Positions 44,185-50,850 of a DNA stretch of 64,000 bases are shown in pieces. Under the pieces are notes generated by a model. That model saw only the letters and a list, made by a program, of their open reading frames with translations, was not told where the DNA came from and made no database searches. Made by a program: the position numbers and the translations under genes. This stretch comes from Afipia sp. (lineage in GTDB: Bacteria > Pseudomonadota > Alphaproteobacteria > Rhizobiales > Xanthobacteraceae): positions 435,162 through 499,161 of the forward strand of contig JANINQ010000001.1 of assembly GCA_024508675.1 (NCBI GenBank). Reading direction: 5' to 3'. Each line of letters starts with the position of its first letter. Position 1 is the stretch's first letter.

Positions 44185-45132
44185 TTAACCGAAGACATTC
44201 TCGCGGCGGGTCTTGCCAATGAAGGCGGTGACCTGCGGCATGGTGGTCTCAATATCGGCTTCGTACTTGAGCAGCACGTTGAGCGTGTCCTTGACCATCT
44301 CATGATCCAGTTCGCTGGCCTGCAGCAGCACCAGCACGCGCGCCCAGTCGATCGCTTCCGACACCGACGGCAGCTTCTTCAGATCGAGCGTGCGTACATC
44401 GTTGATGAAGCTGACGATCTGCCGCTGCAGGGTCTGCGAAATGCCGGGGACACGGCTTTCCACGATCCGCTCTTCCAGCCGTTGCTCGGGGAAACCGATA
44501 TGCAGATGCAGGCAGCGGCGCTTGAGTGCGTCGCCAAGATCGCGTTCGCTGTTGGAAGTCAGGATCACCGTCGGCGGCGCGATCGCCGAGACAGTGCCGA
44601 GTTCGGGGATGGTGACCTGGAAATCGGAGAGGATTTCCAGCAGCAGCGATTCAAACTCAGCGTCGGACTTGTCGATTTCGTCGACAAGCAGCACACAGCC
44701 CTTCGGCTGTTCTAGTGCCTGCAGCAGCGGACGCGGCTCGACAAATTCCTTGGAGAAGAACACGTCGCCGAAGTCGTGCAGCTTGTTCAGCGCGGCCGGG
44801 AGTGTTTCGGCCTCGCCGAGCACTTCGCCGAGCTTGTCTTTCAGGATCTGGGTGTAGAGCAGTTGCTTGGCATATTTCCACTCGTACAGCGCCTTGGCTT
44901 CGTCCAGCCCCTCGTAGCACTGCAGGCGGATCAGCTTGAGGCCGCGCCATGCGGCCAGCGCCTTGGCAAGCTCGGTCTTGCCGACGCCTGCCGGTCCTTC
45001 GACAAGGATCGGCTTTTCGATTTGCTGCGACAGATAAACCGCGGTCGCGATCTGACGGTTGGCGATGTAGCCTGCCGAGGCCAATCCCTGTTCGACCGCG
45101 TCGATGGAGGCGGCAGGCTGATGTTCGGTCAA
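44185..45132 (-). CDS. MoxR/CoxD-like AAA+ ATPase
   Basis: Walker A GPAGVGKT, LQCYEGLD..KALYEW.Y, Walker B LLVDEIDK, LKRRCL; TTG start inferred. Confidence 0.92.
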   Translation of the reverse strand: MTEHQPAASIDAVEQGLASAGYIANRQIATAVYLSQQIEKPILVEGPAGVGKTELAKALAAWRGLKLIRLQCYEGLDEAKALYEWKYAKQLLYTQILKDKLGEVLGEAETLPAALNKLHDFGDVFFSKEFVEPRPLLQALEQPKGCVLLVDEIDKSDAEFESLLLEILSDFQVTIPELGTVSAIAPPTVILTSNSERDLGDALKRRCLHLHIGFPEQRLEERIVESRVPGISQTLQRQIVSFINDVRTLDLKKLPSVSEAIDWARVLVLLQASELDHEMVKDTLNVLLKYEADIETTMPQVTAFIGKTRRENVFG

Positions 45133-45369
45133 GATTGTGAACTCCAAGAAGGCTTTGCGGTCGGGGATGGAACGCGCAGCCGAAATCCGGCAGCGGTGGA
45201 ACTCTACCCATGTGCTACGCCGCTGCGAGGCTTTCGTCCATATCAGCCCGGCCATGCGTCAGTGCAGGCCTGACCCGCTGTGCGAAATCGGGCAGGTCCC
45301 GGCTTTCTCGCGTTGCTGTGACCGCGGAACGTCTTGCCTGTTTGAAACAGGAACTGTAGGTCTGGCGGG

Positions 45370-45813
45370 ATGCTGATGCGGTTGACCAGTGGATTCAGGG
45401 TGAAGGCGGCGCGTGTTCTTGTGGCGCTCTATGCCATTTGCCTTGTCGTGCCGGTCGCCGGATTTGTGCTGGCGGACAGTGCGCTGGCCCATTGCCTGAC
45501 GCCATCCGCGCCGGTCCAGCATGTAAGCGAAGCCGTTCACGATCATCACGCCATGCATGCCGGGGATGATCATCATGCCAGCGCCGGAACCGCTGCTGCA
45601 ACGGACGATCATGCCGGAACGGATCACACCGGCGGCAAGTCCACGCCTCCCTGTTGCGGCGTGATGTGTGTCAGCGCCATTCCAGCCAGCCCGTTCGAGC
45701 TGTCACCTCGGGCCGTTGCTCATGCGGCGGTTCTGGCCGTGTCCGACGCAGGCATTTCCGGCGAAGCGCCCGACAGTCTCTACCGCCCCCCGATCGTCCT
45801 CATGTCGCTCTGA
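45370..45813 (+). CDS. Secreted His-rich CxxxC protein with C-terminal RPP motif (DUF2946/CruR/CutF-like leader)
   Basis: Signal/TM helix, HDHHAMHAGDDHH, CCGVMC, LYRPP near the C-terminus; heads the copper operon. Confidence 0.75.
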   Translation: MLMRLTSGFRVKAARVLVALYAICLVVPVAGFVLADSALAHCLTPSAPVQHVSEAVHDHHAMHAGDDHHASAGTAAATDDHAGTDHTGGKSTPPCCGVMCVSAIPASPFELSPRAVAHAAVLAVSDAGISGEAPDSLYRPPIVLMSL

Positions 45814-45874
45814 TCGCCGGCGCCGTGGCTGAATAGCCGCGCGCCTCCGACCCTGTTCGACATTCGAGGACATC
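45792..45874 (+). promoter_or_regulatory. RBS-sequestering RNA stem between leader and next gene
   Basis: GTCCTC-ATGTCG (45796-45807) is complementary to CGACAT-tc-GAGGAC (45858-45871), which contains the RBS of ATG 45875. Confidence 0.65.
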
Positions 45875-46165
45875 ATGCTCGCGCAATATCCGGCGAGGCC
45901 CGCTGCCGTTGGTTCGGTGGCGACGGCACGCGTGCCGCTATCATTCAGATCGTTGTTTCTTTCATCCACCTTGCTGCTTCTTACGGGGTGTGCGGCGCAG
46001 CCTCCCGTCCCGGCGGGTCCTGATCCATCGGAGCCGAATGCACGGGCGCCGCGCGTGGATTACCGCTCAACGGTGAGCGGCTACACCAGCCAGCGGCCCG
46101 TGGCTCCGTCCGCCTGGAAGAAACAGAACGAGCAGGCCGCGCCTGCTCCGAAGTCCGGTGGGTAG
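45875..46165 (+). CDS. Small lipoprotein of the copper operon
   Basis: Lipobox LTGC, VDYRSTVSGY..QRPV.P..W..QN; GAGGA RBS. Confidence 0.75.
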   Translation: MLAQYPARPAAVGSVATARVPLSFRSLFLSSTLLLLTGCAAQPPVPAGPDPSEPNARAPRVDYRSTVSGYTSQRPVAPSAWKKQNEQAAPAPKSGG

Positions 46166-46172
46166 GTGCACC

Positions 46173-47639
46173 ATGACCCATCCGGATTTCACAAATTCCG
46201 TTCTGAACGGACGCCGCACCGCGTGCGGTATCGGGCGATGGCTGATGGTGAGTACGGCGTTGCTGCTGTCGGGCTGCGCCCCGTTCTCGTCCGATGGCGG
46301 CATGGGCATGGTCACCGCCACCGTGTCGCAGGATCTCGGCAAGGAGGCTTCCGCACAGCGCACGCCCGATGATGCAGCCGCGGCCCGTAGCACCGTGACG
46401 AGGCTTCTCGCCAGGCCATTGTCGGCGGAGGCGGCCGTGCAGATCGCGCTGCTCAATAATCGCGGACTGCAGGCGGCGTATAATGAACTCGCCATCGCGG
46501 AGGCGCGGGCCGTCGAGGGAAGCCTGCCGCCGAATCCGGCGATCTCGCTGTCGCGGATCGCAGGTTCGGTGGAAGTCGAGGTCGAGCGCAAGATCGTTGC
46601 CAATGTGCTGGCGCTTGCGACGCTGCCGATGCGCTCGCAGATCGCAGCCGATCGCTTCCGGCAGGCGCAGATCATTGCCTTGAGCGAAACACTGCGGATC
46701 GCAGCGGAGGCGCGTCGCGCTTACTATCGCGCTGTCGCCGCCCGCGAATTTGCAGGCTTTCTTGCACAGGCGCAGTCCGGCGCGGAGACAGCGGCAAAGT
46801 TCGCTGCTCGTCTTGGCGAGACCGGCGGCATGAACAAGCTCGATCAGGCGCGCGAGCAGGTGTTCTACGCAGACCTGACCGCACAGCTTGCCACTGCGCG
46901 TCAGCGCGCGGCGAGCGAACGCGAAGCGATGATCCGCACCATGGGCCTTTGGGGCGATGATCTGGCGTTCAAGATGGCGGCGGCTCTGCCGCCGCTGCCC
47001 TCGCGTCCGCAAGCATTGCCGGACATCGAAACCGAGGCGGTCCGCCGTCACGTCGATCTGAAGATCGGGCGGCTTGAGCTGGATGCGCTGGCGAAGTCTT
47101 ACGGGCTGACCCAGGCGACGCGTTTCATCAACGTGCTCGATGCGGGCCTCTCCGCAAAGACCACGCGCGAGAAGGCGACCGGCGAGAAAATCCGTGACCG
47201 TGGTTTCGATGTCGAATTGCAGATTCCGATCTTCGATTTCGGCGAGGTGAGGGTCCGCGAGGCGGAAGCCACCTATATGCATGCGGTCAATCGCCTGACG
47301 GAGCGCGCAGTCAATGTCCGCTCCGAAGCGCGCGATGCGTATCGCAGCTACAGGTCGGCCTACGACATCACCATGCATTACCAGAAGGAGGTGTTGCCGC
47401 TGCGCAAGATCATCTCCGATGAAACCCTGCTTCGCTACAACGGCATGCTGATCGATGTGTTCGCGCTGCTGGCAGAGGCACGCCAGCGCATCGCGGCAAC
47501 GACCGCGGCGATCGAGGCGAAGCGGGACTTCTGGCTTGCGACCACGAACCTCAACACTGCCGTGATGGGCGGAGGCGTGTCCGCACGCAGCGAAACTGCT
47601 CTGGCGTCCGGTGCGGCCGCCGAGCCAGCGCAGCATTGA
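46173..47639 (+). CDS. TolC/OEP family outer-membrane lipoprotein (copper resistance)
   Basis: Lipobox LSGC, AVQIALLNNRGLQA, GFDVELQIPIFDFG, DVFALLAEAR. Confidence 0.9.
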   Translation: MTHPDFTNSVLNGRRTACGIGRWLMVSTALLLSGCAPFSSDGGMGMVTATVSQDLGKEASAQRTPDDAAAARSTVTRLLARPLSAEAAVQIALLNNRGLQAAYNELAIAEARAVEGSLPPNPAISLSRIAGSVEVEVERKIVANVLALATLPMRSQIAADRFRQAQIIALSETLRIAAEARRAYYRAVAAREFAGFLAQAQSGAETAAKFAARLGETGGMNKLDQAREQVFYADLTAQLATARQRAASEREAMIRTMGLWGDDLAFKMAAALPPLPSRPQALPDIETEAVRRHVDLKIGRLELDALAKSYGLTQATRFINVLDAGLSAKTTREKATGEKIRDRGFDVELQIPIFDFGEVRVREAEATYMHAVNRLTERAVNVRSEARDAYRSYRSAYDITMHYQKEVLPLRKIISDETLLRYNGMLIDVFALLAEARQRIAATTAAIEAKRDFWLATTNLNTAVMGGGVSARSETALASGAAAEPAQH

Positions 47640-47645
47640 AGGAGA

Positions 47646-49061
47646 ATGACAATGATTTCACGTCGCGCAATTCTCGGATCGGCTGCGGTGCTGGCAGGCG
47701 CAAGCGCCGTCAGCGGCCGCGTTCAGGCCGCCAGCATCCCCGAAGCACCAACATCGACTACGAACACGATGCAGGCGCCGCTCGTTCCCACCAGCGGGCC
47801 GGACTATCAGCCTGTGGTCACGCTCAATGGTTGGACGCTGCCATGGCGCATGAATGGCGACTGGAAGGAATTCCATCTCGTTGCCGAACCTGTGGTGCGC
47901 GAGTTCGCGCCCGGCATGGTGGCGCATCTGTGGGGCTATAACGGCCAGTCGCCCGGCCCGACCATCGAGGCGGTCGAAGGCGACAAGGTGCGCATCTTTG
48001 TCACCAACAAGCTGCCGGAGCACACGACCGTGCATTGGCACGGTCTGTTGCTGCCGAACGGCATGGATGGCGTGACGGGCCTGACGCAGCCGCCGATCGG
48101 CGTCGGCAAGACCTTTGTTTATGAGTTCGTTCTGACCAAGAGCGGCACGTTCATGTACCACCCGCATGCCGACGAGATGGTCCAGATGGCCATGGGCATG
48201 ATGGGCTTCTTCGTGGTGCATCCGAAAGACCCCGCCTTCCGGCGCGTGGACCGGGACTTTGTGTTCCTGATGTCGGCCTACGACATTGATCCCGGCACCT
48301 ATCTGCCGAAGGTGTCGGAGATGACCAATTTCAACATGTGGACATGGAACAGCCGCGTCTTTCCCGGCATCGATCCTTTCGTTGCAGCAAAGGGCGACAA
48401 GGTTCGCATCCGGTTCGGCAACCTCACCATGACCAACCATCCGATCCACATGCACGGCCATGACTTCAAGGTGTCGTGCACCGACGGCGGCTGGGTGCCG
48501 GAAGCGGCAGCGTGGCCCGAGGTCACCGTCGATTGCGCGGTCGGCCAGATGCGCGCCTTCGATTTCGTCGCCGACAAGCCCGGTGACTGGGCGATCCACT
48601 GTCACAAGTCGCACCACACCATGAATGCGATGGGACATGACCTGCGCAATTTCGTCGGCACGAAGAAGAGCGATCTCGTCAAATCGGTGCGCAAGCTGGT
48701 GCCGGACTACATGCCGATGGGCAATGCCGGCATGGCCGACATGGGCGAGATGGAAATGCCGCTGCCGGACAACACGCTGCCGATGATGACCGGCTTCGCG
48801 CAATTCGGTGCGCTCGAGATGGGCGGCATGTTCTCGGTAGTGAAGGTGCGGGAAGGACTCGCATCCGGCGACTACAGGGACCCCGGCTGGTTCAAGCACC
48901 CGCAGGGCACGGTGGCCTACGAGGTCGCGAGCGTGGACGCGCCGCCGCCATCGAAGAAGGCTGCCCCGCAGTCAAACTCAAAACCTGCGGTCGAGATGAA
49001 TGTCGTCAAGCCTTCCAAAACTCCTTCCAAGATTCCTGCCATGAACCACAAGGGACACTGA
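47646..49061 (+). CDS. Tat-exported two-domain multicopper oxidase with Met-rich tail
   Basis: SRRAILG Tat signal; HWHG, YHPH, HPIHMHGH, HCHKSHHTMNAM. Confidence 0.93.
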   Translation: MTMISRRAILGSAAVLAGASAVSGRVQAASIPEAPTSTTNTMQAPLVPTSGPDYQPVVTLNGWTLPWRMNGDWKEFHLVAEPVVREFAPGMVAHLWGYNGQSPGPTIEAVEGDKVRIFVTNKLPEHTTVHWHGLLLPNGMDGVTGLTQPPIGVGKTFVYEFVLTKSGTFMYHPHADEMVQMAMGMMGFFVVHPKDPAFRRVDRDFVFLMSAYDIDPGTYLPKVSEMTNFNMWTWNSRVFPGIDPFVAAKGDKVRIRFGNLTMTNHPIHMHGHDFKVSCTDGGWVPEAAAWPEVTVDCAVGQMRAFDFVADKPGDWAIHCHKSHHTMNAMGHDLRNFVGTKKSDLVKSVRKLVPDYMPMGNAGMADMGEMEMPLPDNTLPMMTGFAQFGALEMGGMFSVVKVREGLASGDYRDPGWFKHPQGTVAYEVASVDAPPPSKKAAPQSNSKPAVEMNVVKPSKTPSKIPAMNHKGH

Positions 49062-49063
49062 AG

Positions 49064-49534
49064 ATGCACATGTTGCAAAATTCCAGAATGATCTTGATCG
49101 CAGCTGCGCTCGCACTGTTGCCAATCCCGGCTGAGCGCGCATCCGCGCACGACAATCATGCGTCCTATGCCGCCGGAGAACCCGGCGATCCGAAGAAGCC
49201 GTCGCGCGAGATCATCGTGGAGATGGGGGATCGCTACTATCACCCGAAGCAACTCCAGGTGAAACGCGGCGAACAGGTTCGCTTCGTGCTCCGCAATGAC
49301 GGGCACGAGGATCACGAATTTCTGCTCGCCACCACAGCAGAGAACCTCAAGCACGCCGAGATGATGAAGAAGAATCCCGGCATGGAGCACGCCGAGCCGA
49401 ACGGCCTTCAGCTCGCGCCGAAGAAATCCGGCGAGATCGTCTGGAAGTTTACCAAGGCGGGGACTTTCGAATTTTCCTGCCTGATCGAAGGCCATCGCGA
49501 GGATGGCATGACCGGCACCGTCGTCGTGAAGTGA
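49064..49534 (+). CDS. Periplasmic cupredoxin (CopI/plastocyanin-like)
   Basis: Signal peptide, HEF, type-1 site SCLIEGHREDGM. Confidence 0.9.
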   Translation: MHMLQNSRMILIAAALALLPIPAERASAHDNHASYAAGEPGDPKKPSREIIVEMGDRYYHPKQLQVKRGEQVRFVLRNDGHEDHEFLLATTAENLKHAEMMKKNPGMEHAEPNGLQLAPKKSGEIVWKFTKAGTFEFSCLIEGHREDGMTGTVVVK

Positions 49535-49558: not shown

Positions 49559-49849
49559 ATGCGGAAGTTTGCAGTTGTCGTGTCGTGCCTCGCGCTCCTG
49601 TCTGGTCAGGCGCTTGCTCAGTCGTTGCCGGTGGAGGGGACTGTTGTGAAGATTGACGAAGGGGCGGGGAAAATCACCCTCCGGCACGGGCCGATCAAGA
49701 AGCTGGATATGGACCAGGGAATGACCATGGTGTTCAGGGCTCAAAGTCCCGAACTGCTCAAACAGGTGAAGGCGGGCGACAAGGTCCGTTTCGATGCAGA
49801 GAAGGTTAACGGGCAGATGACCGTGACCGGAATTGCCAAGGCGAAATAG
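49559..49849 (+). CDS. cusF: CusF-like periplasmic copper chaperone
   Basis: Signal peptide, TLRHGPIKKLDMDQGMTMVF, VKAGDKVRF. Confidence 0.9.
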   Translation: MRKFAVVVSCLALLSGQALAQSLPVEGTVVKIDEGAGKITLRHGPIKKLDMDQGMTMVFRAQSPELLKQVKAGDKVRFDAEKVNGQMTVTGIAKAK

Positions 49850-49995
49850 ACGGCGAAACAGCTTTCGAAAGCCGCCGGGGCCGCGCTGACAAAGCCGTGA
49901 CCCGGCGGATTCTACCTGTTTGCCACCGATCCGTCGCAGTTGATCCCTCAATCGGCCCAAAAGTTCCCGCATGCAACGTCGCGCGGGGAATTCAG

Positions 49996-50850
49996 ATGAT
50001 CAAGAAGCTGTTCAGCAAATACTTTCTGGAAGTCATTCCGTCGATCGTGGCGACGGTGGTCGGGGCGTATATCGTCACCCATTACATCAACGCCAAGTCC
50101 GATACCGACAAGCCGAAGGCGGCCGTCTCAGCGCCTGCGGCGGCCTCGAAAGATGCTGCTCCGCAGACCCTGAAAGCCGACGAGGCTGGTGACCGCTCCG
50201 CGGCTGCAGCGAAGGCCGAGGCGGCACGGCTCAAGGCCGAGAAGCTGGCTGCCGAGAAGGCCGCAGCGGAGCGCGCGGCGACTGATCGGGCCGAGAACGC
50301 CAGGAGGGCCGCGGAAAAGGCGGCTGCGGAAAAGCTCGCCGGTGAGAAAGCCGAGAAGGCTGCAGCCGACAAACTCGCCGCCGAGAAGGCTGCGGCTGAG
50401 AAGCTTGCTTCTGAGAAGGCCGCTGCTGACAAGCGCGACGCCAACGATCTGGCGCGGGCTGCGATCGAGCGCCTGCGCAAATCCGGCCCGCAGCCCACCG
50501 AGCAGTCGCGTGCGCCGGACGTGGCGCAGGGTCAGGAGCGGGCGAAGGTCAACAGCGTGGTTTATGCACCGGCTGTGCAGCAGCCTGCGGTCCAGCCATT
50601 GCCGCCTGCGGTCAACGTGGCGCCGCAGCCGAGCGAAGCTGCGGTGACGGCACCGCCGAAACCGTTTCCCGAACCGATCTCTGGTGAGTCCGAAGCGCGT
50701 GCTGACGATGGATTGCGGCTGACCCCGCCGGCGGACATACCCTCACGCCCTGTCGATCTGCGCGCGAAACAGCGTTCGTCGGTGACGGAAGATGTGGTCT
50801 CGGCTGCGAAGTCGGTGTTCCACGCCGTAGTGCCGGAATCGTCCAACTAG
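49996..50850 (+). CDS. Single-pass membrane protein with AEKAAA/AEKLAA repeats (TolA-like low complexity)
   Basis: TM IPSIVATVVGAYIV, tandem Ala/Glu/Lys repeats, Pro-rich linker. Confidence 0.8.
   Translation: MIKKLFSKYFLEVIPSIVATVVGAYIVTHYINAKSDTDKPKAAVSAPAAASKDAAPQTLKADEAGDRSAAAAKAEAARLKAEKLAAEKAAAERAATDRAENARRAAEKAAAEKLAGEKAEKAAADKLAAEKAAAEKLASEKAAADKRDANDLARAAIERLRKSGPQPTEQSRAPDVAQGQERAKVNSVVYAPAVQQPAVQPLPPAVNVAPQPSEAAVTAPPKPFPEPISGESEARADDGLRLTPPADIPSRPVDLRAKQRSSVTEDVVSAAKSVFHAVVPESSN

Follow-up and report, generated by a model that had tools for sequence, protein, structure and literature searches.

In a 64,000-nucleotide stretch of an Afipia sp. genome (GenBank assembly GCA_024508675.1, contig JANINQ010000001.1, positions 435,162 to 499,161; hereafter the window), the open reading frame (ORF) that heads a copper operon, at 45370-45813, is very probably a CutF-like leader with a hairpin that masks the Shine–Dalgarno (SD) sequence of the gene behind it. 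By analogy with CutF of Rhodobacter capsulatus, we also favor, with less assurance, a reading in which copper prolongs a stall on this leader and so turns on the genes for a small lipoprotein and an outer-membrane efflux protein (OEP). A preliminary description of this DNA had named both Bordetella CruR and Rhodobacter CutF as models; CutF has proved to be the closest known system, and CruR has not. The computational checks that it put forward, or equivalents of them, agree with its interpretation, and the mechanism that it inferred matches the one published for CutF (PMC9973294; bioRxiv 10.1101/2025.02.05.636593). The leader and its hairpin comprise the following parts:

45370-45813, + strand: leader ORF, 147 residues, a divergent CopL/CutF-like peptide with predicted export
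45370-45489, + strand: signal-peptide-like N-terminus, residues 1-40, recognized by inspection of the sequence
45520-45627, + strand: His-rich stretch H51-H86, whose length differs between relatives
45652-45669, + strand: CCGVMC, residues 95-100 (C95, C96 and C100), a CC plus CxxxC motif, putatively Cu(I)-binding
45670-45783, + strand: 38-residue spacer of fixed length and variable sequence, C96 to P141 being exactly 45 residues
45784-45792, + strand: R139-P140-P141, codons CGC CCC CCG, the putative stall site
45792-45807, + strand: 5' arm of the hairpin, within the leader's last codons: GAU, the anti-SD GUCCUC (45796-45801) and AUGUCG (45802-45807)
45814-45850, + strand: inner helices and G+C-rich apical hairpin (45814-16/45848-50, 45819-23/45841-45 and 45825-30/45835-40)
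45858-45874, + strand: 3' arm of the hairpin, CGACAU, uc, GAGGAC and AUC, containing the Shine–Dalgarno GAGGA (45866-45870)

The leader contains every element that the preliminary description had listed, namely a signal- or transmembrane-like helix, a His-rich stretch, CCGVMC (CxxxC) and the tail RPP-IVLMSL, all of which were re-read in the sequence. Its N-terminus, MLMRLTSGFRVKAARVLVALYAICLVVPVAGFVLADSALA followed by HCL (with the predicted cut before H), consists of a basic n-region, a hydrophobic helix and then ALA before that H, a likely signal peptidase I site. AlphaFold2 predicts a single helix over residues 2-39, and Y21, C24 and P28 are conserved among relatives; the call was made by inspection only, and this segment may be either a signal peptide or an uncleaved anchor. 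Among relatives, C95 and C96 are invariant and C100 almost so, the motif reading CC[GA]xxC in most of 149 retrievable cluster representatives. The Arg and both Pro residues are likewise invariant in alignments A1 and A3, in the context [YNDI]RPP[ISN] among the cluster representatives. In the window leader, the C-terminal tail is APDSLYRPPIVLMSL, that is, YRPP-IVLMSL, and P140-P141 lie six residues before the end; that the ribosome would stall at RPP is suggested by work on CutF (bioRxiv 10.1101/2025.02.05.636593).

The gene behind the leader, which encodes the lipoprotein, starts at ATG 45875 with GAGGA 4 nt before it, and the 61-nt intergenic region is almost wholly base-paired. When 45780-45890 is folded with RNAfold, the stem joining the two arms is both the minimum free energy (MFE) and the centroid structure. 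The MFE is −43.5 kcal/mol, against −30.7 ± 3.2 kcal/mol for 200 dinucleotide shuffles (z = −3.95), none of which was as stable, so that the stem exceeds chance. The pairing put forward in the preliminary description, of GTCCTC-ATGTCG (45796-45807) with CGACAT-tc-GAGGAC (45858-45871), is correct base for base, as is that of GAT (45792-94) with ATC (45872-74), and a stem that buries the ribosome-binding site of the next gene is indeed favored in folding. An Rfam scan of 45000-46500 (E ≤ 1) returned no family. A promoter and terminator scan found no + strand intrinsic terminator between the leader and the lipoprotein gene, and we rejected an intrinsic attenuator on this ground.

The stem had been expected to recur and covary in homologous operons, and it does both. 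We compared 41 distinct loci from several genera, each folded from the Arg codon to just beyond the downstream start, and in 40 of them the SD region pairs with codons on or just past RPP. Eleven of 12 clade representatives form one long hairpin of the same type (z between −2.4 and −6.5), and every clade shows a similar apical hairpin. The arm sequences themselves are clade-specific, being built on GUCCUC..., on UUUCCUGA..., on CCUGAUCUG or on the Pro codons ACCUCCC themselves. Afipia loci pair GUCCUC(A/C)UGUCG with CGACAU..GAGGA(C/U); other clades pair UUUCCUGA(C)CUGAC with GUCAGUUCAGGAAA, or CCUGAU(C/U)UG with CA(G/A)AUCAGG, and in some loci the Pro codons ACCUCCC pair with GGGAGGU. Across 12 sequence clusters, the duplex energy of cognate arms is −19.6 kcal/mol, compared with −14.8 ± 0.87 kcal/mol for permuted arms; none of 20,000 permutations equaled the cognate value. 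Within the Afipia loci, 90% of cells are paired, as opposed to 26-52% with slid partners, and the covariation score was matched by one of 500 shuffles. There, the SD pair at alignment columns 13-88 takes the forms GC, GU and AU, and the apical pair 45828/45837 (columns 45 and 54) is GC in 11 loci, AU in seven and GU in two.

A second conserved feature is a distance. Measured from the second Cys of CC, which is also the first of CxxxC, to the second Pro, the spacing is 45 residues in all 44 distinct homologs from the fetched loci and in 137 of 145 cluster representatives no more than 50% identical to one another; the remaining eight have 44 or 46. This length is kept across a 38-residue spacer with a mean identity of 22.6%. 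Among the representatives, the distance from the signal peptide to CC runs from 58 to 128 residues, a variation of 70, and the alignment is gap-rich before CC and free of gaps from CC to RPP. Because residues 41-147 are predicted by AlphaFold2 to have no fold (predicted local distance difference test <50), a folded domain fails to explain the fixed spacer length. In CutF, too, 45 residues lie between the copper motif and the Pro motif, a distance called possibly critical and suggested to bring the copper motif into SecY's periplasmic vestibule as the ribosome arrives at the prolines (PMC9973294).

The codons that form the 5' arm appear to be constrained as RNA. Over the last 54 codons of 19 Afipia-clade sequences, the arm-forming codons after RPP (I, V, L, L and S) have a codon entropy of 0-0.3 bit, with synonymous sites almost frozen (Ser TCG in 19/19, Leu CTG in 15/15 and Val GTC in 14/14). 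The two Pro codons directly upstream of them reach 1.3-1.5 bit, and the mean for the remaining degenerate codons is 0.93 bit; compared with all 27 other degenerate codons, Pro codons included, the arm codons differ with a Mann–Whitney p of 0.0007. In nearly all clades, the 5' arm starts at +7 to +11 nt from the first base of the first Pro codon. This offset is the same whether the stop codon lies at +13, with two residues between PP and the stop, or at +25, with six, and the SD-masking strand is therefore anchored to Pro-Pro and not to the stop. The hairpin base consists of the SD:anti-SD pairs, which an arriving ribosome thus meets first. The helicase of the ribosome is usually placed about 11 nt (+11) from the P-site codon, and the ribosome's footprint extends to about +15. 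If a ribosome were held on Pro-Pro, it would, with this geometry, abut or partly open the hairpin base.

These observations bear on plain translational coupling, in which the hairpin merely ties translation of the lipoprotein and OEP genes to any ribosome finishing the leader, the nascent chain senses no copper, and any control by copper is exerted on transcription, by a regulator whose gene lies elsewhere. A stall-based device predicts an arm anchored to the Pro codons and plain termination coupling does not, nor does coupling explain the invariant R-P-P or the exact 45-residue distance from CC to PP across a disordered spacer of 23% identity. The 5' arm does lie within the last six codons, where a terminating ribosome would open it anyway; the stall here is putative, and the search for CueR, CsoR and CopRS covered the block only. 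Were coupling joined to a MerR-type copper promoter, the promoter-like element ahead of the leader (described below) would have the wrong form, its 17-bp spacer being unlike that promoter type. Taken together, we regard coupling by itself as unlikely.

The same data speak to a different possibility, that the leader is a stable periplasmic or membrane copper-binding protein, such as a CopL-like regulator or a chaperone, and the hairpin is an mRNA-stabilizing or processing element that includes the SD only incidentally. Metal binding would be expected of the His-rich and Cys motifs, the CopL family carries the name 'metal-binding regulatory protein', and the CutF stem-loop also influences mRNA stability. 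A stable protein is nevertheless hard to reconcile with the predicted lack of fold in residues 41-147 and with conservation that is limited to the spacing and short motifs. The frozen synonymous sites and the covariation of the arms point specifically to SD pairing, and CutF and CopL act only in cis. We give this explanation little credence.

Database models place the leader only loosely. The preliminary description had linked it to DUF2946 (PF11162; gathering threshold 23.7 bits), a membership that did not hold: a scan of the whole genome with this model missed the window leader even at E ≤ 10 and found another locus, at 34 bits. Pfam as a whole returned nothing for the window protein at E ≤ 0.1. 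The NCBIfam model CopL_fam (NF033807) matched it instead, with E 2.3e-5 and 25 bits over profile positions 8-128 of 129, under the 40-bit cut-off. Among 20 diverse relatives, CopL_fam matches 18 at E ≤ 0.01 (best 6.2e-7), and DUF2946 gives weak matches to seven (best E 0.0016). On the strength of these sub-threshold CopL_fam and patchy DUF2946 matches, the leader is, as far as sequence models can place it, a divergent branch of the CopL/CutF/DUF2946 group that is annotated as hypothetical.

This branch is widely distributed. A word-indexed search returned 48 clusters, the named ones being from Afipia, and scans of genomes and metagenome contigs gave 24 leader loci. Among genomes of the same family, 47 of 201 have a leader match, representing 26 of 62 genera. 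In a full profile search of 1.84 billion representatives, 442 clusters scored E ≤ 1e-3, and 217 scored E ≤ 1e-10.

CutF, which we know from studies of R. capsulatus cutFOG (PMC8456105, PMC9973294 and bioRxiv 10.1101/2025.02.05.636593), has a Sec signal, a CxxxC motif and the C-terminal sequence PEPEGPPPRL, and its translation, export and cis location are all required (PMC9973294; bioRxiv 10.1101/2025.02.05.636593). Copper binding prolongs a Pro-dependent, EF-P-sensitive stall, and the stem-loop over the cutO SD melts as a result (PMC9973294; bioRxiv 10.1101/2025.02.05.636593). Ozturk et al. 2023 listed 5,334 rule-defined CutF-like proteins, most often encoded upstream of OEP genes and mostly with intergenic regions of <100 nt (PMC9973294). 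CutF-like leaders before OEP and oxidase genes are already described as common, and the mechanism itself is known.

By its sequence, the window leader shows most of the properties that those rules describe (PMC9973294), with the signal peptide judged by inspection only. Its 147 residues fall below the limit of 150, which many relatives of 151-172 residues would exceed; PP lies within the last 15 residues; and the Cys/His motif is represented by CCGVMC and the His-rich stretch. The intergenic region is short at 61 nt (58-81 nt in relatives, except for L052, which has 136 nt and a different downstream gene), and a stem-loop shields the SD of the next gene, as the CutF mechanism calls for. The two systems thus share a small leader (exported in CutF, with export predicted here) that has a Sec-type signal (a candidate one here), CxxxC and a C-terminal Pro-Pro, and a 45-residue distance from the metal motif to the Pro motif, reported there and measured here. 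They also share an SD-hiding stem-loop in a short intergenic region and an operon with a multicopper oxidase.

They differ in that the window leader has no detectable Pfam DUF2946 match and ends in YRPPIVLMSL instead of PEPEGPPPRL, and in that the anti-SD strand here lies inside the leader's own last codons. In addition, a small lipoprotein and then the OEP would be under direct control here, the oxidase coming third with its own SD. The comparison sets a locus read from its sequence beside a leader studied experimentally.

Other known leaders are more distant. CopL, from the copLAB operons of Xanthomonas and Stenotrophomonas (NF033807), is the only curated model that matches the window leader, and it too precedes a multicopper oxidase operon; copper induction reportedly depends on CopL in cis (PMC9973294). 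The genes behind the leader follow another order, and at 25 bits, below the 40-bit cut-off, annotation pipelines would not call the window leader CopL. SecM, VemP and MifM are also exported nascent chains with force-sensitive arrest in which the stalled ribosome opens an SD-masking stem-loop, as is proposed here, but they monitor secretion capacity rather than metal, and their sequences are unrelated and their arrest motifs different.

CruR (Bp2923 of Bordetella pertussis, a DUF2946 protein; PMC9426467) offers another logic. It resembles the window leader as an upstream ORF with a conserved Cys motif and a C-terminus of the R-x-P-P type that exerts post-transcriptional copper regulation, predicted in our case. 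In CruR, which has CXXC and RAPP motifs, Rho-dependent termination takes place over a 162-nt unstructured region and copper relieves the arrest; the signal peptide is dispensable, motif spacing matters, and the controlled operon is one for TonB-dependent uptake (PMC9426467). Transferred to the window, a pause at RPP would shield a Rho loading site, copper would relieve or prolong that pause, and Rho would end or spare transcription before the lipoprotein gene. In keeping with such attenuation, CruR is itself an upstream ORF with a Cys motif, a C-terminal R-x-P-P motif and a spacing that matters (PMC9426467), a mild C>G stretch runs over 45742-45845 (GC skew −0.27), and the same genome has CruR-like RAPP leaders before predicted TonB-dependent receptor-like genes.

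The window locus departs from CruR, however, in several features. Its motifs are CxxxC and YRPP, not CXXC and RAPP, the arrest type that the preliminary description had cited for CruR; its intergenic region is 61 nt and almost fully paired, not a 162-nt unstructured RNA; its C>G bias is mild; and SD sequestration is the feature that is conserved. Copper-off logic, furthermore, fits an uptake operon and not one for detoxification. The structured 61-nt spacer and the detoxification genes favor the logic of CutF over that of CruR, and we consider Rho-dependent attenuation highly improbable at this locus.

The genome carries at least four Pro-tailed leader ORFs, three of them outside the window, with Cys-to-Pro spacings of 52-53 residues and the tails RSRAPPLS, LARAPPMLT and QPRGPPHLS; the CruR-like paralogs thus differ from the window leader with its 45 residues. 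On contig C6, at ~170877-171272 (L055:578-973), a DUF2946 ORF (34 bits) with CAIC, the tail RSRAPPLS and a spacing of 53 is immediately followed by a large gene for a predicted TonB-dependent receptor-like protein, which is the arrangement of CruR. On contig C3, one leader-like ORF (L056:430-939) with the tail LARAPPMLT is separated by 43 nt from the following gene, whose product begins MTIHFRTV...AFAHVTL and may be a YcnI/DUF1775-like copper protein. Another, on the minus strand of the same contig (L057, 508-963 after reverse complementation) with the tail QPRGPPHLS, precedes the gene for a 711-residue predicted TonB-dependent receptor-like protein.

Downstream of the leader, the operon continues on one strand in the order lipoprotein, OEP, multicopper oxidase, cupredoxin and CusF-like protein, and the region before the leader holds a promoter-like element:

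45334-45362, + strand: weak promoter-like element TTGCCT-N17-TAGGTC, ending 7 nt before the leader ATG; low confidence
45875-46165, + strand: lipoprotein of 96 residues with lipobox LLTGC, uncharacterized family, the proposed direct target of the switch
46158-47639, + strand: TolC-like OEP with lipobox LLSGC (Pfam OEP 9.6e-15)
47646-49061, + strand: multicopper oxidase with a Tat-like signal (Pfam Cu-oxidase_3 1e-39, Cu-oxidase_2 2.7e-27; TIGR01480 3e-48)
49064-49534, + strand: CopI-like cupredoxin (NCBIfam CopI models 1.3e-29 and 2.2e-20, both below cut-off; Pfam Cupredoxin_1)
49559-49849, + strand: CusF-like periplasmic copper-binding protein (Pfam CusF_Ec 7.4e-27)

This operon is kept in a relative whose leader is only 38% identical, and a gene of ~95 codons follows the leader directly in nearly all loci. 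The lipoprotein of the window has no Pfam or NCBIfam match, and its homologs are all named 'hypothetical'. The OEP gene is probably translationally coupled to the lipoprotein gene, because its start (GTG 46158 or ATG 46173) lies within 8 nt of the lipoprotein stop. The next two genes have strong SDs of their own (47630-47650 and 49055-49066; 2-6 nt from the preceding stops), AAGGAG for the oxidase, 6 nt after the OEP stop, and AAGGGA for the cupredoxin. No RND pump or adaptor gene accompanies the lipoprotein and TolC-like pair in the operon.

As had been stated earlier for this block, no gene for CueR, CsoR or a two-component regulator such as CusRS was found within it, the rest of the genome not having been searched. 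After the CusF-like gene, an ORF of 317 residues (49897-50850) has a single hydrophobic segment near its N-terminus, together with a long Ala/Glu/Lys-rich repeat (AAEKAAAEK...), and no family match. The neighbors unrelated to copper are a MoxR-like AAA ATPase and a CoxE-like VWA protein and, downstream, a LysR/PBP-type regulator beside an aldehyde dehydrogenase. Copper tolerance in Bradyrhizobium has been reported to involve a multicopper oxidase and a TolC-like protein, the leader of the operon not being addressed (PMC5057107).

The hexamers of the promoter-like element are conserved in Afipia relatives, and its spacer of 17 bp compares with 19-20 bp in MerR/CueR-type promoters; a consensus promoter scan reported neither a sigma-70 site nor TTGCCT-N17-TAGGTC. 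No SD is evident in 45334-45369 before the leader ATG. Because of this, and because the element ends only 7 nt before that ATG, the leader mRNA may be leaderless or nearly so in this strain. Other Afipia loci have about 55 extra nt in the region corresponding to 45334-45369. We dropped the palindrome CCTGTTTGAAACAGG (45337-45351) as an operator, as it is not conserved in relatives.

From the experiments on CutF we infer export, the pause, the copper dependence of the pause and the direction of regulation at this locus. During its translation, the leader would enter the Sec translocon by means of its N-terminal signal sequence. With the ribosome at R139-P140-P141, CC/CxxxC, 45 residues behind, would have left the tunnel and lie in or at the periplasmic mouth of SecY. 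When copper is lacking, translocation and EF-P would quickly resolve the slow Pro-Pro step, the ribosome would leave, and the hairpin (45792-45874) would re-form, its basal pairs GUCCUC:GAGGAC hiding the lipoprotein SD. Periplasmic Cu(I) on the Cys motif would prolong the Pro-Pro pause and leave the mRNA entry site of the ribosome on the hairpin base, since the 5' arm begins at +7 to +11 from the first Pro codon. The anti-SD strand would then be kept unavailable, and 30S subunits could initiate at the lipoprotein gene and, through coupling, at the OEP gene that overlaps it.

Several observations weigh against this mechanism or narrow its reach. The motif YRPP, a putative stall site, differs from the GPPPRL of CutF, and mere termination at the stop codon close by would likewise open the stem, so that a pause is not strictly required. 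With the first Pro in the P site and the helicase position given above, the ribosome would abut the GUCCUC helix and not fully open it. One locus, L050, has a different MFE fold. The helix is mostly invariant inside single clades, and covariation at the level of pairs is accordingly weak there: in alignment A2, from the short-tail clade, 84% of cells are paired, yet covariation does not rise above shuffles because most columns are invariant, and for this clade RNAalifold recovered only helix fragments. We therefore relied on the tests between clades. In some loci, the SD finds comparably good partners elsewhere in the G+C-rich ORF, the terminal window coming first in seven of 14. The sequencing runs that carry this sequence are DNA metagenomes only. 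Finally, given the exposed-looking SD of the oxidase gene, direct control by the switch may be limited to the first two genes.

To our knowledge, a nascent exported peptide has been shown to sense copper at the level of translation in only one organism, with CutF, and with a different logic in one more, with CruR. With the window locus and its relatives, the CutF design reaches a family unrecognized by current domain databases, which heads a widespread lipoprotein–OEP–multicopper oxidase operon in Afipia and neighboring genera. This locus and its relatives add to the published work on CutF a strict 45-residue ruler from Cys to Pro-Pro, an SD-masking strand whose position is set by the stall codons and not by the stop, and tail codons frozen as RNA, each of which is a prediction that this work had left open. 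Since annotation either omits such leaders or labels them hypothetical, copper operons of this type would wrongly seem unregulated.

Tentatively, and with more doubt than confidence, we raise the possibility that databases leave unnamed, and Pfam misses, a large family, of at least 442 clusters at 50% identity, defined by the exact 45-residue CC-to-RPP ruler over a spacer that is otherwise disordered and evolves fast, and by an anti-SD at a fixed 7-11 nt past the first Pro codon. If that were true, copper would be read at one precise position of the ribosome–SecY complex, and the family would provide natural, sequence-diverse material for the idea from CutF that 'distance is critical'. The lipoprotein and TolC-like protein, which occur without an RND or adaptor partner, might then be a new two-part device for copper export across the outer membrane.

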